Shown: positions 4,931 through 27,005, counted from the first letter of the stretch. The stretch: 64,000 nucleotides of DNA from Paludisphaera sp. (GCF_037189885.1 NZ_JBBCIR010000007.1:70218-134217); one strand, 5' to 3'. A program made the numbers and translations. The notes: a model not told the origin generated them from the sequence alone.

Positions 4931-6448
4931 ATGACCGAACTTCCGATCGTCCTGGGCCTCGATGTCGGCACCCAGAGCCTCCGCGCCGCGCTGGTGGATC
5001 TGGACGGCAAGACGATCGCGTACGGCGTCGAGCCGATCGAGACCGTCTACCCGCGACCCGCCTGGGCCGAGCAACGCCCCGTCGACTGGTGGGCCGCCGC
5101 GAAGTCGGCCACGCGCAAGGCGCTCGCGGCCGGGGACGTGAGCCCGGATCGCGTCGTCGCGATCGGGCTGGACGCGACTGCCTGTACGGTCGTCGCCTGC
5201 GACGCCGACGGCGAGCCGATCCGTCCGTCGCTCCTCTGGATGGACCAGCGGTCCCACCGCGAGGCCGACGAGATCAGCGCGACAAACGACCCCGGTTTGC
5301 GCTACTACTCCGGCCGGGTCTCGCCGGAATGGATGCTCCCCAAGGCGCTCTGGCTGAAGCGGAACGAGCCCGGCGTCTACGCCCGCGCCGATCGGGTCGT
5401 GGAATGCACCGACTGGATGATGCACCGGCTGACCGGCGAGTGGAGGCTGTCGCTTAATCATCTGGCGGTGAAGTGGAATTACGCCCGCCCGGACGGCGGC
5501 TGGCCGCTGGCGATGATGAAGGCCGTGGGCCTGGACGACCTGGTCTCGAAGTGGCCGGCGGAGATCCTGCCGCTGGGCAGGCAGGCCGGGAAGCTCTCCG
5601 CGAAGGCCGCCGCCGACCTCGGGCTGAACGCGGGGACGCCGGTCGCGCAGGGGGGGATCGACGCCTATCTCGGGATGCTCGGCCTGGGGGCGACGGGCGA
5701 CGGCGACGTGGCCGTGATCGTCGGCTCCAGCACCTGCCACCTGGCCCAGACGCGCGAGGGGGTCTTCGGCTCCGGCGCCGCCGGCTGCTACCCCGACGCG
5801 ACGGTCGAGGGGCTGTACACGATCGAGGCCGGGCAGACCGCGACCGGCTCCATCCTCGACTGGTACCGCCGCCATTTCGCCGGCCGGGAGCAGGCCGAGG
5901 CCGAGGCTCGCGGGGTGAACGTCTACAGCGTGCTCGACGAGCAGGCCGCGGCCGTCCCGCCGGGGTCGGATGGGCTGGTCGTCCGCGAGGACTGGCAGGG
6001 CAACCGCTCGCCGTACAAGAACCCGCAAGCTCGGGGCGCGATCGTCGGGCTGTCGCTGGCCCACGGCCCCGGCCACGTCTTCCGGGCGCTGTACGAGGCG
6101 ACCGCCATGGGGACGCGCGCCATCCTCGACGATTGCTCCCGCCACGGCCTGGGCGTGGAGCGGATCTTCATCGGCGGCGGCGGGGCGAAGTCGCCGCTTT
6201 GGCTGAAGATCCACGCGGACGTCCTCCAGAAGCCCATCCACCTGACTCGCGAGGGGGAGTCGTGCGCCCTGGGCTCCGCGATGTGCGCGGCCGTCGCCGC
6301 CGGAATCTACAAGGACTTCGACGAGGCCGCCGCCGCCATGGTGGCCGTCGAGCGCGTCGTCGAGCCCGACCCCGGGAACGCGGCGGCGTATGACGAGTTG
6401 TTCGCGCGTTACGCCGACCTGTACCGGCGGCTGAACGAGCCGGCGTGA
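4931..6448 (+). CDS. FGGY-family carbohydrate kinase (ribulokinase-like)
   Basis: LGLDVGTQSLRA, IGLDATACT, LWMDQR, GGIDA, WQGNRSP and IGGGGAKS motifs. Confidence 0.9.
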   Translation: MTELPIVLGLDVGTQSLRAALVDLDGKTIAYGVEPIETVYPRPAWAEQRPVDWWAAAKSATRKALAAGDVSPDRVVAIGLDATACTVVACDADGEPIRPSLLWMDQRSHREADEISATNDPGLRYYSGRVSPEWMLPKALWLKRNEPGVYARADRVVECTDWMMHRLTGEWRLSLNHLAVKWNYARPDGGWPLAMMKAVGLDDLVSKWPAEILPLGRQAGKLSAKAAADLGLNAGTPVAQGGIDAYLGMLGLGATGDGDVAVIVGSSTCHLAQTREGVFGSGAAGCYPDATVEGLYTIEAGQTATGSILDWYRRHFAGREQAEAEARGVNVYSVLDEQAAAVPPGSDGLVVREDWQGNRSPYKNPQARGAIVGLSLAHGPGHVFRALYEATAMGTRAILDDCSRHGLGVERIFIGGGGAKSPLWLKIHADVLQKPIHLTREGESCALGSAMCAAVAAGIYKDFDEAAAAMVAVERVVEPDPGNAAAYDELFARYADLYRRLNEPA

Positions 6449-6562
6449 GCCCGGCGGGGGGCGAGGTCGGATGCCGGCCGCGTCGGGATTTCGCAGGCCG
6501 GGTCTCCACCCGGCCTACGAGGACTTCGATCCCGTCGACCTCCGGTCGCGCCCCTCTTGGCC

Positions 6563-7831
6563 TCAGTCGGCGGCCGGCTTGAGCGGCTTCGCCGGGACGC
6601 CGGCCACCGTCGTCCCCGCCGGAACCTCGCCCCGAGGGACGACCGCCCCGGCGCCGATGACGGCGTTCGCGCCAACCTGGACGGGGGCGACGAGGACGGC
6701 GTTGGCGCCGACGCGGGCGCCGTCGCCGATGGTGGTGGGGTGCTTGCGCTCGCCGTCGAAGTTGGCGGTGATCGCGCCGCCGCCGATGTTGACGTCGCGG
6801 CCGACCTTGGCGTCGCCCAGGTAGGCCAGGTGGCGGGCGATCGTGCCGGAGTCCAGCGTCGAGCGGTTCACGTCGACGAACGAGCCGACCTCCACGTCGT
6901 CGGCCAGCGTCGTCCCCGATCGGATGTGCGCGAACGGGCCGATCTTGCAGCGCTCGCCGATGGTCACGACGCCGGTGATGACGCTGAACGGGTGGATCAG
7001 CGTGTCGCGGCCGATCTTCGCGCGGCCGTCGATGTAAGTGTTGCCGGGGTCGACGATCGAGACCCCCTCGGTCATCCAATGGTCCTGAATCCGGGCCTGC
7101 ATGATGGCCCCGGCCTGGGCCAGGTGCTGGCGGGTGTTGACGCCCAGGATGTCGTCGGCCGAGAGGACGTTGAGGGCCAGCACCTTGCCGCCGGCGCGCA
7201 GGAGCTGCTCGGGGGCGTCGGTCAGGTAGTACTCGCCCTGGGCGTTGCTGGTGCCGATCTGGTCGAGGGACGACCAGAGGGCCGGGGCGTCGAAGACGTA
7301 GCAGCTCGGGTTGACCTCGCGGATCGCGCGCTCCTCGGGGGAGCAGTCGCGCTCCTCGACGATGCGGAGGAAACGGCCGGCGGAGTCGCGGAGGATGCGG
7401 CCGAAGCCGGTCGGGTCGTCGACCTCGGCCGTCCCCAGCAGGCAAGGGGCGCCCTCCTTGCGCTGGCGCTCGAACAGGTCGGCCAGCGGCTCGGGGCGCA
7501 GGAGGGGCTCGTCGCCGACGAGGACCATGATCGGGCCGTCATACCCCTCCAGGAGCGGCCGGCAGACCTTCACGGCGTGGCCGGTGCCGAGTTGCTTGTC
7601 CTGGACGGCGAAGCGGATGTCGGGCTCGCCGTCGAGGGCGGCGTAGAGCTGGTCGGCCGCGTAGCCGACGACGACGATGATGGTCCTGGCGCCCGCGCCG
7701 CGGGCGGCGTCGACGACGTAGGAGATCATCGACCGGCCGCAGACCTCGTGCAGCACCTTCGCCCGGTCGGAATTCATCCGCTTCCCCTGGCCCGCCGCCA
7801 GGATGATCGCCACCGGCCCTTCGATCGCCAT
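6563..7831 (-). CDS. glmU: GlmU-like UDP-GlcNAc pyrophosphorylase / acetyltransferase
   Basis: IILAAGQGKRMNS, QLGTGHAV, NAQGEYYLTD, GVN, hexapeptide repeats, HLAYLGDA and ANFDG. Start at ATG 7831. Confidence 0.88.
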   Translation of the reverse strand: MAIEGPVAIILAAGQGKRMNSDRAKVLHEVCGRSMISYVVDAARGAGARTIIVVVGYAADQLYAALDGEPDIRFAVQDKQLGTGHAVKVCRPLLEGYDGPIMVLVGDEPLLRPEPLADLFERQRKEGAPCLLGTAEVDDPTGFGRILRDSAGRFLRIVEERDCSPEERAIREVNPSCYVFDAPALWSSLDQIGTSNAQGEYYLTDAPEQLLRAGGKVLALNVLSADDILGVNTRQHLAQAGAIMQARIQDHWMTEGVSIVDPGNTYIDGRAKIGRDTLIHPFSVITGVVTIGERCKIGPFAHIRSGTTLADDVEVGSFVDVNRSTLDSGTIARHLAYLGDAKVGRDVNIGGGAITANFDGERKHPTTIGDGARVGANAVLVAPVQVGANAVIGAGAVVPRGEVPAGTTVAGVPAKPLKPAAD

Positions 7832-13928: not shown

Positions 13929-14807
13929 GTGCAGGACCGGACCATCGACCGCAGGGGCTTCCTGGCGACCGCCGGGGCCCTGGCCGCCGCCTCGGCCCTG
14001 GGGGGGAGCGCCCGCGCCTCCGCCCCGACGCCCCCCGGCTGGAAGAAGGCCTACATGCTGGGCCAGACCAAGGGCCCCATCCTGCCCACGTTCCAGATGC
14101 TGAAGGAGGCCGGCTTCCAGGGCGTGGAGCTGATCAGCCCCAACCAGCTCGACCAGCGGGAGGTCCTCGACGCCCGCGACGAGACCGGCCTGGTCATCCA
14201 CGGGGTTAGCGGCGGCGCCCACTGGGCCAAGCCCCTGTCCGACCCCGACCCGGCCGTCGTCGCCGAGGGGGTCGCGGCGATCAAGCGGGAGTTCCTGGAC
14301 GTCAAGGCTTACGGCGGGGACACCGTGCTCGTCGTCCCGGCGGTCGTCACCAAGAAGGTCTCCTACCAGGAGGCCTGGGACCGGTCGCAGGAGCAGATTC
14401 GCGGGCTGATCCCGTTCGCCGAGGAGGCCGGGGTCAAGATCGCGATCGAGGAGGTCTGGAACAAGTTCCTCCTCAGCCCGCTGGAGTTCGCCCGCTACGT
14501 CGACGAGTTCGAGAGCCCGACCGTCGGCGCCTACTTCGACGTCGGCAACGTCGTCGAGTTCGGCTTCCCCGAGGAGTGGATCCGCACGCTGGGCAAGCGC
14601 ATCCTCAAGGTCCACATCAAGGAGTACGCCAAGCCCAAGCGGTTCGACTACAAGCTGGGCGACGGCGGCGAGATCGACTGGCCGGCCGTCAAGCAGGCCC
14701 TCGTCGACGTCGGCTACGACGGCTGGATCACCGCCGAGCTGGGCATCCCCGACCTGGCCGAGGCCAAGGACGTCGTCGCCCGCATGGACAAGCTCCTCTT
14801 CAGCTGA
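13929..14807 (+). CDS. Tat-exported sugar phosphate isomerase/epimerase (AP endonuclease 2 / xylose isomerase-like TIM barrel)
   Basis: GTG start after a GGGAGG Shine-Dalgarno. Twin-arginine signal DRRGFL...ARA, then IEEVWNKFL, YFDVGN, VHIKEY and WITAE. Confidence 0.88.
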   Translation: MQDRTIDRRGFLATAGALAAASALGGSARASAPTPPGWKKAYMLGQTKGPILPTFQMLKEAGFQGVELISPNQLDQREVLDARDETGLVIHGVSGGAHWAKPLSDPDPAVVAEGVAAIKREFLDVKAYGGDTVLVVPAVVTKKVSYQEAWDRSQEQIRGLIPFAEEAGVKIAIEEVWNKFLLSPLEFARYVDEFESPTVGAYFDVGNVVEFGFPEEWIRTLGKRILKVHIKEYAKPKRFDYKLGDGGEIDWPAVKQALVDVGYDGWITAELGIPDLAEAKDVVARMDKLLFS

Positions 14808-15064: not shown

Positions 15065-15508
15065 ATGAACGGCAGCGACGTGATCACGCCGACGAAGGCC
15101 GACGCGAGGCTCGCCGAGGAAGCGGGGCGGAAACTCGCGGCGCACCTGGGTCGGGGCGAGGGACTTCGAGTCGAGCTGACGGAGACGAGCGAGGAGTTGA
15201 GGCTCCCGCCGGTCGCCTTGCGACTTCTCGTCCGCGTCCTTGATGAGTTGGGGAGGGGCAACGCCGTCGAGCTGACTCCGGTCCGCGCCGAGCTGACGAC
15301 ACAGCAGGCGGCCGACCTGCTGAACGTCTCGCGGCCGCACCTGGTGAAGCTCCTGGACGAAGGGGCGATGCCCTCCCGCAAGGTCGGCACTCATCGGCGG
15401 GTTCGTCTCGCGGACGTCCTGGCGTTTCGAGACGAGTGGCACGCGCGGCGGCACGCCGCCCTGGACGAACTGACGGCGATGAGCCAGGACCTGGACATGG
15501 GCTACTGA
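15065..15508 (+). CDS. Excisionase-family (HTH_17) DNA-binding protein, putative antitoxin/regulator
   Basis: ELTTQQAADLLNVSRPHLVKLLDEGAMPSRKVGTHRRV; lies directly upstream of a PIN gene. Confidence 0.88.
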   Translation: MNGSDVITPTKADARLAEEAGRKLAAHLGRGEGLRVELTETSEELRLPPVALRLLVRVLDELGRGNAVELTPVRAELTTQQAADLLNVSRPHLVKLLDEGAMPSRKVGTHRRVRLADVLAFRDEWHARRHAALDELTAMSQDLDMGY

Positions 15509-15511
15509 CTC

Positions 15512-16078
15512 GTGGCCCCGACGGTCCTCTACGACGCTTGCGTGCTCTATCCGGCCCCGCTGCGCGACCTGCTGATGCGGCTCGCTCTGACGGGGCTGTT
15601 CCAGGCCCGCTGGACGGACGAGATCCACGACGAATGGACGCGGAACGTGGCGGCCAACCGGCCGGACATCACGGTCGACAGCCTGGATCGATGTCGGAAG
15701 TTGATGGACGACCACGTCCCGGACAGCCTCGTGGTCGGCTACGAGCATCTCATCCCAGGACTTACGCTCCCGGACCTGGACGATAGGCACGTGCTCGCGG
15801 CGGCGATCCACGGAGGCGCGGGGACGATCGTGACCTTCAACCTGGGTGACTTCCCGGCGTCCGTCCTGGATGGCTATCACATCCGGGCCATCCATCCGGA
15901 CCGCTTCGTCGTCCGCCTCTGGAGCGAATCGCCCGAGGCGATCCTGGAGGCCGCGCGTCGTCAGCGCCAGGCGTTGAGGAGACCGCCCAGGACCGCGGCC
16001 GAGTATCTGGCGACGCTCAGCCAGTGCCGCCTGACCGAGACGGTCGCATGCCTGCTGCCCTTTGAGCACGACATCTGA
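15512..16078 (+). CDS. PIN-domain protein (putative toxin)
   Basis: VLYDACVLYP...LRDLL, WTDEIHDEW, LPDLDDRHVLAAAI and IVTFNLGDFP; GTG start 3 bp after the upstream stop. Confidence 0.9.
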   Translation: MAPTVLYDACVLYPAPLRDLLMRLALTGLFQARWTDEIHDEWTRNVAANRPDITVDSLDRCRKLMDDHVPDSLVVGYEHLIPGLTLPDLDDRHVLAAAIHGGAGTIVTFNLGDFPASVLDGYHIRAIHPDRFVVRLWSESPEAILEAARRQRQALRRPPRTAAEYLATLSQCRLTETVACLLPFEHDI

Positions 16079-16355
16079 CGAGCCCCGATCGGCCCTGGCT
16101 CCGGGACGGGGATTCGATTCACGCGAATTGCCAAGGAGCCATTCCGGACGATCCACAGGTCGGCCTCCGAGATTTCATGGATCCGCCGAAAAAACTTGAT
16201 TCACGCGACGATCACGCGGCAGATTCGGCGCAAGTCTTTGTCGAGCGGCGACTCCGGGAATCGGGGGGAGATTCTCGGAAAAACGCATTCGCCGGGGGGG
16301 TGGATCGGCATAATGACATGAGGGGCGAACGGGAGCGGGAGGTACCGGTGTCACG

Positions 16356-17270
16356 ATGATCGATCGGGCGACGGACGCGAGCTTGTTGAGGCGCTTCGCC
16401 GAGCGCCGCGAGGAGGAAGCCTTCGCGGAACTGGTTGCGAGGCACGCGCCCAGGGTCCGTCGCGTCTGCCGGAGGTTCCTACACAGCGAGCACGACGTCG
16501 AGGACGTGGCGCAGGCGACGTTCCTCCTGCTGGCGAGGCGGGCCGGGGACGTGGCCTGGCGCGACTCGGTGGGGGGCTGGGTGCGCGACGCCGCCCGGCG
16601 CCTGGCGCTGAACGCCCGCTGCGAGATCGCCCGCCGGGGTCGACGCGAGACGCCCGTCTCCGCGTTCCGGCTCGGCGACGCCGGCGCCCTGCCCGACCCA
16701 GAATGCCCGCTCTCCACGTTCACCGACGAGATCGAACGTCGCGACGTCCGCCGGCTGATCGACGGCGCGATGGAGGAACTCCCCGAGAAATATCGCGCCC
16801 CCCTGGCCCTCTGCTACCTGGAAGGGAAGACGAACCACGAGGCCGCCGCCGCGCTGGGATATCCGGTCGGCTCGATCTCGCGACGGCTCGACCGCGCCCG
16901 CTCGTTGCTCCGCAAGCAACTCGTCGGACGGGGAGTCGCCCTGGCGCTGCTGGTCGCCGCCGCCGCGTGGATCGTCGCCGGTCCCGGGTCCGATCGGCGG
17001 CCGAGCCGGACGCTCCGCCCCGTCGGGGTCGCCGCGGCCGCCCCGTCCCCCGAGGATCGACGCGGGCTTACAGAACTTTTCGCGGCCCTGGAGCGTAAGG
17101 ACGGCCAAGGGCTGGACCGCGCCCGGTTCGACCGGGGCGTCTCCCACGCCGAGGCCCAGGGCGCGGAAGTCCGCCTCGCCGCGATCGACGCGGACCTCGA
17201 TCCACCCGGCGCCGCCGACGTCTCCCGACTGCTGGCGACCTGCGTCCGGTGTCATGGGGAGTACAGGTGA
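16356..17270 (+). CDS. ECF (sigma-70 family) sigma factor with a transmembrane segment and a C-terminal CxxCH heme-binding motif
   Basis: Sigma2: AFAELVARH...DVEDVAQATFLLLARRA. Sigma4: LPEKYRAPLALCYLEGKTNHEAAAALGYPVGSISRRLDRAR. Hydrophobic VALALLVAAAAWIVAG at about 16935-16982, and the protein ends in CVRCHGEYR-stop. Confidence 0.9.
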   Translation: MIDRATDASLLRRFAERREEEAFAELVARHAPRVRRVCRRFLHSEHDVEDVAQATFLLLARRAGDVAWRDSVGGWVRDAARRLALNARCEIARRGRRETPVSAFRLGDAGALPDPECPLSTFTDEIERRDVRRLIDGAMEELPEKYRAPLALCYLEGKTNHEAAAALGYPVGSISRRLDRARSLLRKQLVGRGVALALLVAAAAWIVAGPGSDRRPSRTLRPVGVAAAAPSPEDRRGLTELFAALERKDGQGLDRARFDRGVSHAEAQGAEVRLAAIDADLDPPGAADVSRLLATCVRCHGEYR

Positions 17271-17353
17271 CGTGGCGCGGAGGCCGGCGGGCCGTGGAAC
17301 CGGCGCCGGTTCATGTTCTTCGGACAACCGTCGGCGGCCCCGAAACCCGACGA

Positions 17354-17399
17354 CCCTCACCCGCCGCTGGCGCGGCTACCCTCTCCCGGCGGGAGAGGG
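17354..17399 (+). repeat. REP-like palindromic repeat (CCCTCACCC...CCCTCTCCC-n-GGGAGAGGG type)
   Basis: CCCTCACCCGCCGCTGGCGCGGCTACCCTCTCCCGGCGGGAGAGGG; related copies lie at 22977-23023 and 23117-23166. Confidence 0.65.
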
Positions 17400-17559
17400 G
17401 ACGAGAACAGACCCGGCCCCGGGCTCGCGCCCGCCGCGTCTCTGGCCTTCCGCAACGCTTTTGAAGTACGATGGATAAATCTCGGGCCGGCCCCAGGCGG
17501 GCCGCCCCGATCCCGCCCCGCTATCCCCGACCTCATCCACACCCGGCAGGTGCGACATC

Positions 17560-19713
17560 ATGGCGACGGCCACCAAGCAGCCCTCCAGCGCTTCTCCCGC
17601 GACGCCCGAAGGCGGGCGTTCGGTCTGGGGGAGGATCCTGGCGGCGATCGACGAGTTGTACAGGTTCCTCGCGTCGCTGAAGCTGGCCGTGCTGTCGCTC
17701 TCCAGCCTGGCGCTGGCGCTGGCGTTCGCGACGTGGTTCGAGTCGACCTACGGCACCAAGGCGGTCCAGGCGTTCGTCTATCAGAGCGCCTGGTTCTCGC
17801 TGCTGCTGGCGTTCCTGGCGATCAACATCCTCTGCGCGGCGACCATCCGGTTCCCCTGGAAGAAGCGTCAGACCGGGTTCGTCATCACGCATACCGGGCT
17901 GCTGGTGCTGATCGCCGGGTCGTACGTCCACTTCCAGTCGGGCGACGAGGGGCTGGTCGGGATGCAGGAGGGGGAGAGCCGCCGCGAGATGCTGCGGACC
18001 GACTTCCCCGTCTTCCGGCTCCGCGAGGTCGACCCGCACACGAGCCAGCCGACCGCGACCTACGCCATGCCGTTCGACGAGACCGGCCCGTTCCCCTGGG
18101 GGGACGGCCAGCCCCGCATCCGCAACATCTTCGACCTGACGGTGAACCGCCTCACCGGCGGCATGTTCCCCAGGCCCCACGACGAGGCGGACGTCCTCAG
18201 CCGCGAGGGGGATCCGTTCACGCTGGCCGTCCGCCAGTACCTGCCGGCCTCGGCCCCGGCCACCGTCCGCGAGCCCGATCCCAAGGGCCAGCCGATGGCC
18301 CGGATGCTCCTGAAGTTCAAGGGCCCCGGCATGCCGGAGGCCCGCGACGCCAACCCGGAAGACGCCGCCCAGTGGTTCAAGCTCGACCGCCGCTTCCAGC
18401 GCGTGGCGCGCAGCGGGGGCATGCCGACGCTGATGTCGTTCGCCCACGTCGACCGGCCCGAGTACGTCGAGGACTTCCTCAACCCCCCGCTCGACGCGAG
18501 CCCGACCGGCGTCGCCCGGTTCCGCTACGCCGACAAGGAGGGGAAGGAGCGGTCCTATGACTTCGTCCTGGAGACGAAGGCGGGCGAGTTCATCCCGCTC
18601 CCCGACAGCGACCTGAGCGTCTCGCTGGACAAGCTGGCCACCTTCCCCACCGGCGAGCTGGCCCGGACGGTGGGCGAGGACGCGATCCCGATCGCCGTCT
18701 TCGACATCAAGAAGGGGGACGGCGAGCCGATCGAGCACGTCGCGATGGGGGCGATGCCGATGTTCCCCAACGTGATCCCGCGGGCGACGGACGACGGCGG
18801 CAAGCCCCCCGAGGCGCTGGCGCGGATCCACCTGATGCTGCCGCCGGACCTCGACCCGCGCACCAGCTCGATGTTCGGCCAGATCGACGTGCTGGCCGCG
18901 CCGGGGGACAAGCTGTACTACCGCGCGTTCGGCCGGGGCAAGGACAACAAGCCCGAGCTGCGGTCGTCCGGGCCGGTGACGATCGGCAAGGAGATGAACG
19001 TCTTCGGCGGGGCCGACGCGGCGATGACGCTGACGTTCCAGGTGGCCGAGTACCACCCGTCGGCCGTCGAGCGGCGGATCTACCGCCCTGCGCTGGCGAT
19101 CGGCACCCAGATGGACGAGGCGCTGCCGGCCTGCCTGATCGACGTGACCGTCGATGGCGCGACCGAGTCGATCTGGCTGCAGCGCGGCGAGTCGCTGGAC
19201 GCCCCGCTGTACCGCCCGCTGCCGATCGGCGGCCGGTCGTTCGAGATCGCCTACGACGTGGACCGCAAGCCGCTGGGCTTCGAGCTGAAGCTGAAGGACT
19301 TCGAGGTCGGCTTCGAGCCCGGGACCGAGCAGCCGACGAAGTTCGTCAGCACGGTCGCCGTGGACGACCCCGGCCAGGCGGCGACGGAGGAGGAGCACGT
19401 CATCTCCATGAACGAGCCGATGACCCACCGGGGGCTGACGTTCTACCAGATGCGATATTCGCCGCTCGTCGACCCGAGGACGGGCCAGCGCACGGGCGAG
19501 TTCCAGTCGGTGTTCCAGGTCGGCAGCAACCCGGGCCGGCCGATCATCTACTTCGGCAGCCTGCTGGTCGTCCTCGGGACGTTCGCGCAGTTCTACATGC
19601 GGGCCGGCCTCTTCTCCGACGGCGGGCGTCGCGAGCGCGCCCTGGCGGCCAAGAAGGCGGGCCTCCCGCCGCCGGACGAGCCGGAGACGCGCCAGGCCGA
19701 GGAAGAGCTTTGA
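17560..19713 (+). CDS. resB: Cytochrome c biogenesis system II protein ResB/CcsB-like
   Basis: N-terminal TM helices (FLASLKLAV, YQSAWF, RFPWKKRQTGFVITHTGLLVLIAG), a large soluble domain ending ISMNEPMTHRGLTFYQ, then NPGRPIIYFGSLLVVLG; adjacent to ccsA. Confidence 0.82.
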   Translation: MATATKQPSSASPATPEGGRSVWGRILAAIDELYRFLASLKLAVLSLSSLALALAFATWFESTYGTKAVQAFVYQSAWFSLLLAFLAINILCAATIRFPWKKRQTGFVITHTGLLVLIAGSYVHFQSGDEGLVGMQEGESRREMLRTDFPVFRLREVDPHTSQPTATYAMPFDETGPFPWGDGQPRIRNIFDLTVNRLTGGMFPRPHDEADVLSREGDPFTLAVRQYLPASAPATVREPDPKGQPMARMLLKFKGPGMPEARDANPEDAAQWFKLDRRFQRVARSGGMPTLMSFAHVDRPEYVEDFLNPPLDASPTGVARFRYADKEGKERSYDFVLETKAGEFIPLPDSDLSVSLDKLATFPTGELARTVGEDAIPIAVFDIKKGDGEPIEHVAMGAMPMFPNVIPRATDDGGKPPEALARIHLMLPPDLDPRTSSMFGQIDVLAAPGDKLYYRAFGRGKDNKPELRSSGPVTIGKEMNVFGGADAAMTLTFQVAEYHPSAVERRIYRPALAIGTQMDEALPACLIDVTVDGATESIWLQRGESLDAPLYRPLPIGGRSFEIAYDVDRKPLGFELKLKDFEVGFEPGTEQPTKFVSTVAVDDPGQAATEEEHVISMNEPMTHRGLTFYQMRYSPLVDPRTGQRTGEFQSVFQVGSNPGRPIIYFGSLLVVLGTFAQFYMRAGLFSDGGRRERALAAKKAGLPPPDEPETRQAEEEL

Positions 19714-19814
19714 CGAGCGAGGCGACGCCCTCCCCCGCCCCCTCGGGGGGGACGCATCAAGCCAGTAGCATTTGCATGAGCCATCGAAACGCACGCCGCT
19801 CCGGGAGACACGCG

Positions 19815-22460
19815 ATGAGACCATACGGGCGATTCCTGACCAGCCTGGCCGCTTGCGGCCTATCGGGCCTGCTGGGGCTCGCGATCGCCGGGACGGCGAC
19901 GGCGGAGGAGGCCGCGGGGCCCGCCGGGGCCTCGGCGAAGCCGGGCCGGCTGGGCGACACCCCGGCCTACGATCGGGTCGGGCGGATCGCGGTCATGCAC
20001 CAGGGGCGCGTCAAGCCGCTGGACACCGTGGCGCGCGAGGAGGTCAAGCAGATCTTCGGCCGCGAGACGATCAAGCTGCTGGACGACCGCAACCAGGTCG
20101 TCGAGTCCTGGTCGCCGGTCGCCGCGTTCGTCGACTGGATCGTCCGGCCCGAGCACTGGGACTCGCAGCCGTTCATCCTGGTCGACTACCTGCCGCTGAA
20201 GCGCGAGATCCTCAAGAGCACGCTCAACGCGAAGTTCCTGGCGATCGCCGAGCGTCCCGAGACCCCCGACGCGGACAAGCAGGCCCTCGCCGCGCTGGCC
20301 GACGACGAGGACATCGACGCCGCCCGGCTCCGCGCCTTTTTGAGGACGGCGAAGATCGAGAAGGTCGACGCCGACGCCCTGGAGGCGATGGCGGCGAAGC
20401 TGGCGGAGGAGCACAAGTGGCTCTCGCCAGAGGAGCTGCGCGACGCGCGGATCCGCCACGGCGACCACGAGGAAGACTTCATGGCGTGGGTCTCCCAGCT
20501 CGACGAGCAGCGGCGCCAGTTCGACACCAGCCCGACCCTCGCGGCGCGGCTGACCGAGGTGGAGCGTCGCGCGGTCGAGGTTGGGCAGCGGCTGGCGACG
20601 TACATGGCGTACTCGGGCGACGAGATGCGGTCGGTCGGGCTGATCCGGATCATGCCCCGTCCGTTCGGCCCGGAGGCGTTCGCGTTCATCAAGGACGTCG
20701 TCGAGCGCGTGCGGTCGGACCGGAACCTCAGCCCGCGCGACCTGCCGCCGGTCGACTTCGACGCCCTGAAGGCGCTGGACACCTACCTCAACGACGTGCC
20801 GGGCGCCGACCGCCACGACCCGGGCGAGGACGCGGAGTTCGACCGGAAGTTCGCCGCGTACCTGGCCGAGAACTCGGTCTGGACGCCGCTGAAGGTCATG
20901 CTGAAGGCCGACCCCGAGACGCTGGTGAAGGCCGGCTACCCCGAGGCCCAGACCCGCGCGTTCCTGGACGCCTACGCGGCCTTCGTGGACGCCCAGAACA
21001 GGTACCCCGGCGAGGTGCCGCTGGAGACGGCCGACGCCCTGCTGACGGCCTCGCGGGAGCTGGGGCAGGCCGTAAACCCCGAGCACTACCCGACCGCGGC
21101 GAAGATGGACCGCGAGTGGCGGTTCAACGCCGTCAACCCGTTCTACCTGGCGCCATTCGCCTACGGCCTGGCGACCGTCCTCCTGGCGATCGCGCTGGGC
21201 TTCGCCGGCGGCCGCGTCGGCGAGATGGGGTCGTTCGGCCGGACGATCTACGGCGGAGGGATGCTCGGGCTGCTGGCCGGGATCGGCCTGGAGTGCTACG
21301 GCTTCTACGAGCGGGTTCTCATCACCGGATGGGCCCCGGTCACGAACATGTACGAGACGGTCATCTGGGTCGCCCTGGTGGCCGGCGTGATGGCCTTCAT
21401 CTTCGAGCTGATCTACCGCCGGACGTTCGCCGGGGTCGCCGGCTCGGCGGTGGCGCTGCTGGGGACGATCACGGCGGTGAACGTGCCGCTGCTGGACCCC
21501 AGCATCAAGAGCCTCCAGCCGGTGCTCCGCAGCAACCTCTGGCTGACGGTCCACGTCATCACCGAGGTCTCCAGCTACGCGGCGTTCGGCATGGCCTGGG
21601 CGCTGGGGCTGATCGCGACGCTCTTCTACCTGACGGCCACCTACCGTCGGTCGCCCTCCTACGGCGAACTGGCCTCGCCGCTGGTCCCGGGCTTCCCGCT
21701 CTTCACGGTGGGCTTCGGCGGGATGGCGGCGGGCTACGGGATGTTCGGGCCGGACTGGGCGATGTCCGACAACCTCTTCTATGCCTTCTCGACGATGGCC
21801 GCGATCGGCGGGACGATCTCGCTGGGGACGACGCTGGCCCTGGTCGGCGAGATGTTCAACCGGGCGACCTCGAACGTCGTCCGCGGCGAGCAGCCCTCCG
21901 CCACGGCCGATCCGATCGCCTCGCCCGGCCCCGACGCCCCGCGGCCCCGGCCGACGGTCGAGCAGATCCGCGCCATGGCCGCGCCGGCGACCCTGGACGC
22001 CCGCGGCGAGGCGATGCAGAGAACGGCCGCGGTGATCAAGCCGATCTCCAACTTCATCTACCGCTCGATGCAGGTCGGCGTCCTGCTGATCGCCGCCGGG
22101 ACCATCCTGGGCGGCGTCTGGGCCGACTACTCGTGGGGGCGGTTCTGGGGCTGGGATCCCAAGGAGGTCTGGGCGCTGATCACGCTCCTGGTGTACCTCG
22201 TGCCGCTGCACGGGCGGTTCGCCGGCTGGGTGAGCACGTTCGGCCTGGTCTTCTGGTCGGTCGCGTGCTTCCTGTCGGTCATCATGGCGTGGTACGGCGT
22301 GAACTTCGTGCTGGGCGTCGGCCTCCACAGCTACGGCTTCGTGGAAGGCGGCTCGCAGGGCGCGATGGGCCTGATCGTCTGCGGCGTCATGTCGCTGCCC
22401 CTGGGCGCCTGGTGGCGTCGCAAGCTGGCGAGCCTGCGTCCGGTCGAGACGGTGGCGTGA
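19815..22460 (+). CDS. ccsA: Cytochrome c biogenesis protein CcsA (large form with N-terminal extracytoplasmic domain)
   Basis: GRVKPLDT, APVTNMYET, PVLRSNLWLTVHV, the WWD signature WADYSWGRFWGWDPKEVW and the C-terminal GLHSYG. ATG 19815 follows GGGAGA. Confidence 0.93.
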   Translation: MRPYGRFLTSLAACGLSGLLGLAIAGTATAEEAAGPAGASAKPGRLGDTPAYDRVGRIAVMHQGRVKPLDTVAREEVKQIFGRETIKLLDDRNQVVESWSPVAAFVDWIVRPEHWDSQPFILVDYLPLKREILKSTLNAKFLAIAERPETPDADKQALAALADDEDIDAARLRAFLRTAKIEKVDADALEAMAAKLAEEHKWLSPEELRDARIRHGDHEEDFMAWVSQLDEQRRQFDTSPTLAARLTEVERRAVEVGQRLATYMAYSGDEMRSVGLIRIMPRPFGPEAFAFIKDVVERVRSDRNLSPRDLPPVDFDALKALDTYLNDVPGADRHDPGEDAEFDRKFAAYLAENSVWTPLKVMLKADPETLVKAGYPEAQTRAFLDAYAAFVDAQNRYPGEVPLETADALLTASRELGQAVNPEHYPTAAKMDREWRFNAVNPFYLAPFAYGLATVLLAIALGFAGGRVGEMGSFGRTIYGGGMLGLLAGIGLECYGFYERVLITGWAPVTNMYETVIWVALVAGVMAFIFELIYRRTFAGVAGSAVALLGTITAVNVPLLDPSIKSLQPVLRSNLWLTVHVITEVSSYAAFGMAWALGLIATLFYLTATYRRSPSYGELASPLVPGFPLFTVGFGGMAAGYGMFGPDWAMSDNLFYAFSTMAAIGGTISLGTTLALVGEMFNRATSNVVRGEQPSATADPIASPGPDAPRPRPTVEQIRAMAAPATLDARGEAMQRTAAVIKPISNFIYRSMQVGVLLIAAGTILGGVWADYSWGRFWGWDPKEVWALITLLVYLVPLHGRFAGWVSTFGLVFWSVACFLSVIMAWYGVNFVLGVGLHSYGFVEGGSQGAMGLIVCGVMSLPLGAWWRRKLASLRPVETVA

Positions 22461-26285: not shown

Positions 26286-27005
26286 ATGGCGATTGACGCG
26301 ACGCGGGCGGTCGGCGAACTGGTGGCCGAGAAGATTTCGAGGGCCTCGGTCTTCGATCGGTTCGGCCTGGATTATTGCTGTCATGGGCAGGTCGCGTTGG
26401 ACGAAGCGTGCCGGCGCAAGGGCGTGGCGGTGGGCGAGGTGGTCGCGGCGATCGCGGCCGACGACGCGGCGCCCCCGGCGGAGGACGAGCCCGATTACGC
26501 GAGCATGCCGCTGACGGAGCTTGCCGACCGGATCGTGTCGACCCACCACGCCCTCCTCCGGCGCGAGCTGCCGAGGCTCCATGAGCTGCTGTCCCGGGTC
26601 GTCAACGCGCACGCCGACCGCCACCCCGAGCTTCGCGAGGTCGCGACGACCTACGCGGCCTTCCGAGAGGAGCTGGATTCCCACCAATCGAAGGAGGAGC
26701 AAGTCCTCTTCCCGATGATCCGCGAGCTTGAGGCGGCTACCAGTTCTCCCAGCTTCCATTGCGGGAGCGTCGAGAACCCGGTCCGGGTCATGATGCACGA
26801 GCACGATTCCGCCGGCGCGGCGATCGCGCGGATGCGGGAGTTGACCGGCGACTTCGCGACGCCCCCCGACGGCTGCACGACTTACCAGGCCCTGATGGCC
26901 GGGCTGGCCGCCGTCGAGCACGACCTGCACCGCCACGTCCACAAGGAGAACAACATCCTCTTCCCCCGCGCCGTCGCCCTGGAAGCGAGTCTGGCCGGGG
27001 TTTGA
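26286..27005 (+). CDS. ric: Iron-sulfur cluster repair di-iron protein (Ric/YtfE/ScdA)
   Basis: FGLDYCCHG, IVSTHHALLRRELP, HQSKEEQVLFP, MMHEHD, TPPDGCTTY and HVHKENNILF. Confidence 0.95.
   Translation: MAIDATRAVGELVAEKISRASVFDRFGLDYCCHGQVALDEACRRKGVAVGEVVAAIAADDAAPPAEDEPDYASMPLTELADRIVSTHHALLRRELPRLHELLSRVVNAHADRHPELREVATTYAAFREELDSHQSKEEQVLFPMIRELEAATSSPSFHCGSVENPVRVMMHEHDSAGAAIARMRELTGDFATPPDGCTTYQALMAGLAAVEHDLHRHVHKENNILFPRAVALEASLAGV

Follow-up and report, generated by a model that had tools for sequence, protein, structure and literature searches.

Can a sigma factor that carries a haem attachment site report on the machinery that fills such sites? We address this question for a locus in a 64,000-nucleotide stretch of Paludisphaera sp. 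DNA (GCF_037189885.1 NZ_JBBCIR010000007.1:70218-134217; hereafter the window), in which the gene for an extracytoplasmic function (ECF) sigma factor, at positions 16,356 to 17,270, ends in a CxxCH motif and is followed by ccsB (also called resB) and ccsA, which encode the system II cytochrome c synthetase. System II genes tend to be regarded as housekeeping, and the matching of cytochrome c maturation capacity to demand is poorly understood in bacteria. A preliminary description of the locus had proposed a one-component sigma factor whose external domain is a substrate of the CcsBA that it regulates. We find it very probable that the gene encodes a membrane-tethered sigma factor with a tail of cytochrome ancestry. 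That the sigma factor is itself a c-type cytochrome and serves as a decoy substrate, such that failed haem attachment would free the sigma factor and boost ccsBA expression, is possible but rather doubtful.

Results

An ECF sigma factor ends in a haem attachment motif

The product of the 304-codon open reading frame is an ECF (group 4) sigma factor by its defining domains. Region 4 was matched both by Sigma70_r4_2 (PF08281; residues 133-184, 44.1 bits against a cut-off of 25.7) and by PF04545 (34.4 bits against 24.1). It lies ~45 residues beyond region 2, and no further sigma domain (sigma1 or sigma3) was matched in Pfam. Among the NCBIfam models, the general ECF superfamily model alone matched the protein (TIGR02937, 80.6 bits, cut-off 42.9). 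The intact sigma2 and sigma4 domains of the preliminary description are both present, and all its coordinates were right. ECF genes typically, though not universally, adjoin the gene of a cognate anti-sigma factor; we found no anti-sigma gene adjoining the sigma gene, which has ResB next to it and a PIN/helix-turn-helix (HTH) pair before it.

The reading frame terminates in LLATCVRCHGEYR-TGA, which gives the C-terminal residues CVRCHGEYR. The CxxCH placed at 17,241 to 17,255 by the preliminary description is there, and it is kept in every homologue: in the 14 sequences of alignment A4, the 31 of alignment A7 and 45 of 46 profile matches, with the motif invariant in more than 40 clusters at 50% identity. 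The sole profile match that lacks it is a 2384-residue protein that is not a family member. Because the motif is improbable in a 304-residue protein and is invariant across homologues, its occurrence by chance is excluded. The residues that follow are another matter, as the 'xxYR' that had been read as a class II signature is confined to the nearest relatives of the window's protein; other members have VALH, VAMR or, most often, xxFR(Q), making CHxxFR(Q) the usual family ending. Apart from the two Cys and the His, only a few Leu are invariant in the tail alignments.

Fused ECF sigma factors are the rule in this genome. The ten closest paralogous ECFs, on contigs C64, C24, C72, C3, C35, C45, C55, C54, C10 and C27, all have C-terminal extensions of 300-900 residues with hydrophobic segments and unrelated outside domains; one of these extended paralogues ends in a thioredoxin-like WCGPC domain.

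The fusion is found across Isosphaeraceae, upstream of the cytochrome c synthetase genes

When the window's tail was used by itself as the query of a word-indexed search, six clusters came back, 54-90% identical, in each of which four residues follow C[VM][RQ]CH at the C terminus. The first single-sequence searches placed the tail in part of one genus, and we considered it a genus-restricted oddity; that reading was overturned when the DNA upstream of resB was examined and profiles were used. Upstream of resB, the fusion occurs with a longer and more divergent tail in two more genomes of the genus and in another genus. A tail profile run against 1.84 billion representatives gave 46 matches, at least 27 of which have ECF region 4 ahead of the tail. 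Most of the remaining matches are N-terminally cut fragments with the same linker; stand-alone exported proteins (P0034, P0050 and P0051) are also among them.

The profile built from the 31 tails of A7 matched 93 of the 121 Isosphaeraceae genomes, partly through stand-alone paralogues. At the best 30 loci, which represent 13 genera, an orthologous sigma module (48-71% identical to residues 1-190 of the window's protein) invariably precedes the tail in the same polypeptide, and ResB lies directly downstream in 26 of the 29 that are uncut by a contig end. The sigma gene is followed by resB at seven of seven close loci, and the order sigma gene, ResB, CcsA recurs at the named-record loci L070-L077, from relatives that include Paludisphaera soli JC670. 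Orthologues of the fused gene occur in 14 genera of the family, and in 13 of these the position directly upstream of the cytochrome c synthetase is kept. As judged from these sequences, the sigma-cytochrome fusion is family-wide in Isosphaeraceae and hence old. The preliminary description had left it to the homologues whether the C-terminal CxxCH and the ccsBA synteny are conserved; both are.

Searching the whole assembly with tblastn, we found no second ResB and no second full-size CcsA, and the sigma gene therefore precedes the only cytochrome c synthetase of the organism. One further PF01578 protein, of 298 residues, is encoded on contig C54.

In 401 genomes sampled across the phylum, the tail profile did not find the ECF fusion, in a search that scored only a few candidates in each genome and could have overlooked weak members. 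Its matches were all either exported stand-alone proteins or proteins fused to a phosphatase-like domain. The latter, at loci L031-L035, L037 and L038 of other planctomycete families, join an exported dual-specificity-phosphatase-like domain (HCHHGxHRGP) to a C-terminal cytochrome c'-like domain ending in CxxCHxxYR, and are another signalling-type fusion of a cytochrome c'-like haem domain.

The tail is likely a member of the class II cytochrome c superfamily

Beyond the membrane segment, the C-terminal part of the protein has ~95 residues, ~70 of which form the helical domain. The only Pfam family that matched the window's tail was PF01322, Cytochrome C' (E = 0.18, 13.2 bits), which is also the only non-sigma family in seven of seven full-length relatives (E = 3.6e-5 to 0.033, 15.6-25.2 bits). 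Given a gathering score of 26.5 bits, strict PF01322 membership was reached neither by the window's tail nor by these relatives, and the matches were always to the last 45-50 positions of the model. The tail profile also found stand-alone secreted planctomycete proteins, at E values of 2e-10 to 6e-8 per genome. Three of five such homologues pass the PF01322 threshold (31.8, 31.8 and 31.1 bits), the other two fall at most 1 bit short, and P0051 scores 60.3 bits. P0051 is a 582-residue exported protein from a metagenome, composed of three ~190-residue repeats that each end in a cytochrome c'-like domain with CxxCH.

When compared with all PDB sequences, the tail profile matched designed helical repeats, through composition bias, and otherwise class II cytochromes only. 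These were cytochrome cb562 variants, from E = 9e-4 and some over the whole length, 4cx9 ('cytochrome c, class II'; 0.011), and the cytochromes c' 1bbh (0.017) and 1cpq (0.018). A profile of the close-clade alignment A2 gave no PDB match, but the broader A6 and A7 profiles did reach the class II cytochromes. AlphaFold rendered the window's own tail as three helices in a poor model (predicted local distance difference test score, pLDDT, 61.7). As this was too poor for a fold search, we used the long-form tail of G001, a Paludisphaera relative, which was modelled as four helices (pLDDT 82.6, predicted template modelling score 0.74). The best Foldseek match of this model in the PDB was a cytochrome cb562 variant (E = 0.25, probability 0.84, template modelling score ~0.5). 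We dropped Metal_resist (PF13801), matched in two of nine tails, as helical bias; it was absent again in the broader family.

Each of these lines alone is not significant, and four-helix bundles are common. Because several sub-significant lines are joined by a transitive link through the stand-alone proteins that score above threshold, membership of the tail in the class II cytochrome c (c'/c556/b562) superfamily is likely on sequence and model comparisons. The cytochrome c' resemblance claimed in the preliminary description therefore stands at the level of the superfamily, with sub-threshold PF01322 scores, the stand-alone link, the PDB matches and the four-helix model behind it, and falls for a full cytochrome c'. 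We consider it somewhat probable that the tail carries covalent haem.

The window has a reduced form of the tail

Relative to the long forms, the tails of the window and its nearest relatives have a ~22-residue gap that runs from the end of helix 2 to the start of helix 3. This clade also lacks a nearly invariant Trp of the tail and both conserved Met, one in an AMxPF motif before helix 1 and the other in an EMR motif in helix 3. The short external domain that the preliminary description entered as a caveat is thus real: the window's copy is a shortened, three-helix derivative.

The conserved tail Met is found in 20 of 27 orthologues and is replaced by Thr or Val in the Paludisphaera clade. 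In the window's clade, His264 in helix 2 is invariant. We considered His264 as a universal distal ligand and rejected it, as it is restricted to the Paludisphaera clade. With Met available as a possible sixth ligand in most members, and His264 in the window's clade, these candidates would argue that haem in this family is not, as a rule, five-coordinate and gas-binding in the manner of c', and the five-coordinate NO/CO-binding haem envisaged in the preliminary description is not indicated.

For the window's tail, the ratio of nonsynonymous to synonymous substitution rates (dN/dS) is 0.27 in comparison with a long-form relative and 0.33 with a metagenome orthologue. Other pairs gave 0.31-0.44 for the tail, and the sigma part gave 0.12-0.21. 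These values indicate that the tail is under purifying selection and is not decaying freely. At one locus, L074 (positions 5737-6972, from the metagenome-assembled genome MFD02579.bin.2.29), the sigma gene continues in a reading frame that encodes neither the cytochrome tail nor CxxCH, which is either a frameshift error in a long-read assembly or a real loss.

A single helix would tether the sigma factor and place the tail outside

Between sigma4 and the tail lies a hydrophobic segment, GVALALLVAAAAWIVAG, with a Kyte-Doolittle mean of 2.16 over 19 residues and, in its flanks, six Lys/Arg on the N-terminal side and four on the C-terminal side. Across 27 orthologues, the top 19-residue hydrophobic window has a Kyte-Doolittle mean of 2.1, and Lys/Arg average 5.7 in the 15 residues before the helix against 2.6 in the 15 after it. 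In an AlphaFold model of a 116-residue piece of the window's protein, the membrane segment is helical (residues 2-20 of the piece). As the sigma module has to be in the cytoplasm, we predict the tail to be on the outer side of the membrane. The external C terminus of the preliminary description agrees with this prediction, which the single helix, with more Lys/Arg on its sigma side, also yields. Consistent with an outside location, stand-alone homologues of the tail have signal or lipoprotein leaders.

The helix starts 10-15 residues past the sigma4 HTH motif in the 27 orthologues (19 in one), and ~10 residues past it in the window. A cytoplasmic anti-sigma domain does not fit into so short a stretch, and sigma4 would sit almost on the bilayer. 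Because sigma4 would sit so close to the membrane with no anti-sigma domain present, analogy suggests that the tethered form is inactive and needs to be cut free. The genome encodes M50 site-2 proteases at at least five loci; these genes permit release by proteolysis and are not specific evidence for it.

The sigma gene and resB are preceded by different promoter-like elements

The promoter-like element upstream of the sigma gene (Table 1) has a family consensus of an A/T-rich stretch followed by TTGCATTYG-N~16-GGCATWAT, and keeps both its position and its sequence at 27 orthologous loci, which represent many genera. The window's genome contains it once. In a pattern search of 12 relatives it occurred once per genome in seven, always at the sigma gene, with one match in total for a reversed control. 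A single-copy element of this kind would fit a small, autoregulated regulon. It is without the usual AAC/CGT signature and resembles a variant sigma-70 promoter.

The element before resB has the family consensus TCTGGYC-N17-18-TAGAAT, ~90-100 nt upstream of resB, and is kept in most of 19 distinct intergenic regions. We read the housekeeping promoter of this genome, TTGACA-N17-TAnAAT, from its tRNA promoters; the -35 of the resB element does not match TTGACA, yet it is conserved. Sites of the resB type also precede unrelated genes. Inference of a regulon from the two motifs was abandoned, one being single-copy and the other lying before unrelated genes. The weak terminator-like hairpin that follows the sigma gene is not conserved in relatives, in which the intergenic region measures 42-722 bp. 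The simplest reading of these sequences could be a constitutive resB promoter combined with a specific, possibly autoregulated sigma promoter and read-through from it.

We found no isolate transcriptome and used metatranscriptomes of relatives, whose contigs cover the 3' end of the sigma gene, the intergenic region and resB in pieces, a pattern that reports expression and not operon structure. Immediately ahead of the resB start codon, in the window (17,530-17,559) and at orthologous loci, 20 bases (CCCGGCAGGTGCGACATC-ATG) hardly vary between genera, less than leaders typically do, and may form a translational control element.

Neighbouring genes

The assignment of the next two co-directional genes to ResB/CcsB and CcsA in the preliminary description was correct (Table 1), and the CcsA translation contains the WWD motif as WGRFWGWDPKE. 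The ccsA start is uncertain, since a TTG at 19,710 overlaps the resB stop and an ATG at 19,812 precedes a signal-like segment; relatives align to CcsA from residue 30-54 onward only. The N-terminal extension of CcsA (19,710-21,340), of ~540 residues, matches no Pfam family and is conserved in relatives from about residue 30-54.

The ric gene that the preliminary description noted 9 kb away was located at 26,286-27,005 and encodes ScdA_N and Hemerythrin domains of the di-iron repair type. It is separated from the sigma locus by unrelated phosphodiesterase and sulfatase genes, with no evident link. On the other side, at 15,065-16,078, an HTH_17 gene (147 residues) and a PIN_3 gene (188 residues), likely a toxin-antitoxin pair, lie between a xylose-isomerase-like TIM-barrel gene (ending at 14,807) and the sigma gene. 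Because the TIM-barrel gene directly precedes the sigma gene in the Paludisphaera relatives L005 and L006, the pair looks like a recent insertion.

Table 1. Features of the sigma-ccsBA locus, in window coordinates
Feature	Position	Strand	Basis and remarks
Promoter-like element upstream of the sigma gene	16278..16314	+	GAAAAACGCATTCG-N10-GGATCGGCATAAT; conserved
Gene for membrane-tethered ECF sigma factor with cytochrome-c-like tail	16356..17270	+	304-residue open reading frame; Pfam sigma2 and sigma4 above cut-offs
Sigma-70 region 2, residues 26-87	16431..16616	+	PF04542 (Sigma70_r2), 38 bits, cut-off 24
Sigma-70 region 4, residues 133-187	16752..16916	+	PF08281 and PF04545
Single predicted transmembrane helix, residues 193-209	16932..16982	+	Hydropathy and flanking charges; AlphaFold helix
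Pro/Ala/Arg-rich linker, residues 210-235	16983..17060	+	Poor conservation in alignments A1, A2 and A4; pLDDT <50; highest dN of all regions
Predicted extracytoplasmic helical domain, residues 236-304	17061..17267	+	Three helices, reduced from a four-helix bundle like that of class II cytochromes c
CxxCH haem-c attachment motif, C296/C299/H300	17241..17255	+	Direct reading; four residues precede the stop
Weak terminator-like hairpin after the sigma gene	17297..17312	+	Consensus scan: 2 sites in the region against 0.7 expected
Promoter-like element before resB	17441..17472	+	TCTGGCC-N19-TACGAT, ~90 nt before the resB ATG
ccsB/resB, system II cytochrome c synthetase subunit, 717 residues	17560..19713	+	PF05140, 77.9 bits; sole copy in the genome
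ccsA, system II cytochrome c synthetase subunit with long N-terminal extension	19710..22460	+	PF01578, 96 bits, residues 545-868; TIGR03144, 146.9 bits

Discussion

A model that could accommodate these features is that a one-component, membrane-tethered ECF sigma factor with an outside cytochrome tail controls ccsBA through a decoy substrate. We judge this model to fall just short of an even balance between right and wrong. In it, CcsBA, whose genes lie immediately downstream and which is the genome's sole machinery of this kind, would accept the tail as a substrate. A tail bearing haem would be folded and resistant to proteases, and the sigma factor would be parked at the membrane, where, with sigma4 ~10 residues from the bilayer, it would probably be unable to work. 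Should haem attachment fail, through too little CcsBA, haem or reduced thiols, the apo-tail would be degraded; periplasmic apocytochromes are generally degraded, as in maturation mutants. A site-2 protease would then cut the membrane helix and free the sigma factor, which would transcribe from the single-copy promoter of its own gene and read through into ccsB-ccsA, adding to the output of the constitutive internal resB promoter. Such a circuit would form a feedback loop on cytochrome c maturation, a proposal that we advance tentatively and think somewhat more apt to be wrong than right. Haem attachment, proteolysis and the target genes are the steps that we infer, building on an architecture, a conservation, a cytochrome ancestry and a synteny that are observed or strongly supported.

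Several observations weigh against decoy control of ccsBA. The resB gene has its own conserved element, whose -10 (TAGAAT) is of the genome's housekeeping type. We looked for a motif common to the sigma-upstream and resB-upstream elements and found none, and neither element has the classical ECF promoter signature (AAC ... CGT), and no ECF-type promoter could be assigned. In genus g22 (G029, G525 and G526), which accounts for all three exceptions among the 29 informative loci, the fused sigma gene lies apart from resB, which is elsewhere. What ties the tail to cytochromes c' in sequence comes for the most part from its final helix or final two helices. The window's own tail could be losing its function, as it scores below every family threshold, has lost ~22 residues, the Trp and two Met, and models poorly. 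Finally, the idea that ccsBA is under the control of this sigma factor, which would also sense whether haem has been attached to its own tail, is an inference from sequence. The unlinked arrangement in g22 and the separate resB promoter are our reasons for caution; the tight linkage to ccsBA is our reason for favouring the decoy over a general sensor.

Such a general sensor would be a stable holo-cytochrome in which the redox state of the haem, or the binding of O2, NO or CO, controls sigma release. The nearby ccsBA genes would then only secure maturation of the sensor or belong to a shared respiratory regulon. We regard this explanation as unlikely, if less so than those that follow. It draws on the same evidence for a class II cytochrome c domain as does decoy control, cytochromes c' bind NO and CO, and the apparently remodelled distal side of the Paludisphaera clade (Met to Thr or Val, with His264) suggests that ligation matters. 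However, the Met and His candidates argue for a six-coordinate haem, a poor gas binder, in most members, and the ric gene 9 kb away, which might be cited in favour of NO sensing, is separated by unrelated genes. A gas or redox sensor would also leave unexplained its fixed place upstream of a housekeeping cytochrome c synthetase in 13 of 14 genera. If the tail instead held no haem, its Cys pair and His could be a redox dithiol or metal site that reads the thiol-redox state outside the membrane. Invariance limited to C, C, H and a few Leu, together with the loss of other conserved bundle residues in the window's clade, would suit such a site, and a thiol sensor would make sense beside ccsBA given that system II needs reduced apocytochrome thiols. 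Yet a CxxCH that ends the last helix of a class II-like bundle, in the compartment of CcsBA, has the context of a haem attachment site, stand-alone homologues pass the cytochrome c' model, and no second metal-binding or CxxC-type motif is conserved. We therefore think a haem-free sensor improbable.

The tail could also be a leftover. Extensions of planctomycete ECFs have been proposed to arise when duplicated ECF genes insert into coding regions (Pinto and da Fonseca, 2020; PMC7671368), and by this route an ECF gene may have landed in a gene for a small membrane-anchored cytochrome that formerly preceded resB, leaving a tail that is a tether without sensing, or a protein under some other form of control. 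The many paralogous ECFs of this genome with unrelated membrane-spanning extensions fit that history, as do the shortened tail of the window and the orthologue L074, in which the tail is out of frame. Against it, the fusion is old (14 genera), dN/dS in the tail is 0.27-0.44 and CxxCH is invariant, none of which a mere tether needs. There is, in our view, little chance that this account is correct.

Fused sigma/anti-sigma ECFs released by regulated intramembrane proteolysis include IutY (Pseudomonas putida, ECF243), SCO4117 (Streptomyces coelicolor, ECF52) and members of ECF48 and ECF53 (PMC8999054). As in IutY and the ECF52 type, the protein studied here joins sigma2-sigma4, a transmembrane segment and an outside domain in one polypeptide, without a separate anti-sigma gene, and by analogy proteolytic release would be the expected route of activation. 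In those proteins a cytoplasmic anti-sigma or zinc-finger (ASD/ZAS) domain separates sigma4 from the membrane; this family lacks one, and its outside domain is a cytochrome-c-like bundle in place of a FecR-like or carbohydrate-binding one.

With class II cytochromes c (c', c556 and b562/cb562; PF01322) the tail shares a (modelled) all-alpha up-down bundle, a single CxxCH in the last helix near the C terminus, a (predicted) location outside the cytoplasmic membrane, and a weak, consistent similarity over the last two helices. Against ~125-130 residues in those cytochromes, it has only ~70 in the window and ~90-100 in the long forms; it scores below the Pfam threshold, and its candidate distal ligands, a Met in helix 3 or before helix 1, or His264, differ from the five-coordinate c' pattern. 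Whereas class II cytochromes c are free electron carriers, here the domain is the tail of a transcription factor. Periplasmic c-type haem sensors are known in chemoreceptors and kinases, such as the PAS-haem-c domains of Geobacter GSU0582 and GSU0935 and Desulfovibrio DcrA. As would the present family if its tail carries haem, these place covalent haem c in the outside sensor domain of a membrane-bound signalling protein, but their fold is PAS-like and their output is a methyl-accepting chemotaxis protein or a kinase, whereas the family described here has a modelled four-helix bundle and acts through a sigma factor to which the bundle is directly fused. In Bacillus subtilis, pro-sigma-K is held inactive at the membrane by a pro-sequence, as we propose for our family with its tail, and is freed by the site-2 protease SpoIVFB. 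That pro-sequence is N-terminal, short and without a cofactor, and its signal is a developmental checkpoint; the tail in our family is C-terminal, and the signal that we propose is the state of the outside domain.

We found no ECF with a cytochrome c extension in the literature searched, which excluded the supplementary group descriptions of the ECF re-classification, where an unnamed listing is possible. In that literature, the sensor domain is of a kind unreported for sigma factors, and the protein is otherwise akin to membrane-tethered fused ECFs. We know of no other sigma factor with covalently bound haem and, to our knowledge, no other case in which a built-in substrate exerts feedback control on cytochrome c maturation.

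In one family, Isosphaeraceae, a transcription factor and a miniature cytochrome c have been fused, and the gene stands before the only haem attachment machinery. If decoy control is true, the quality of what that machinery produces would be read through a decoy substrate, and a haem-c domain would be added to the sensor modules known from ECF sigma factors. With its minimal tether and no anti-sigma domain, the protein would offer a clean model for sigma activation through nothing but release. Should the feedback idea fail, a cytochrome-bearing sigma factor would still represent a novel type of extracytoplasmic sensor, for redox state or for a ligand.

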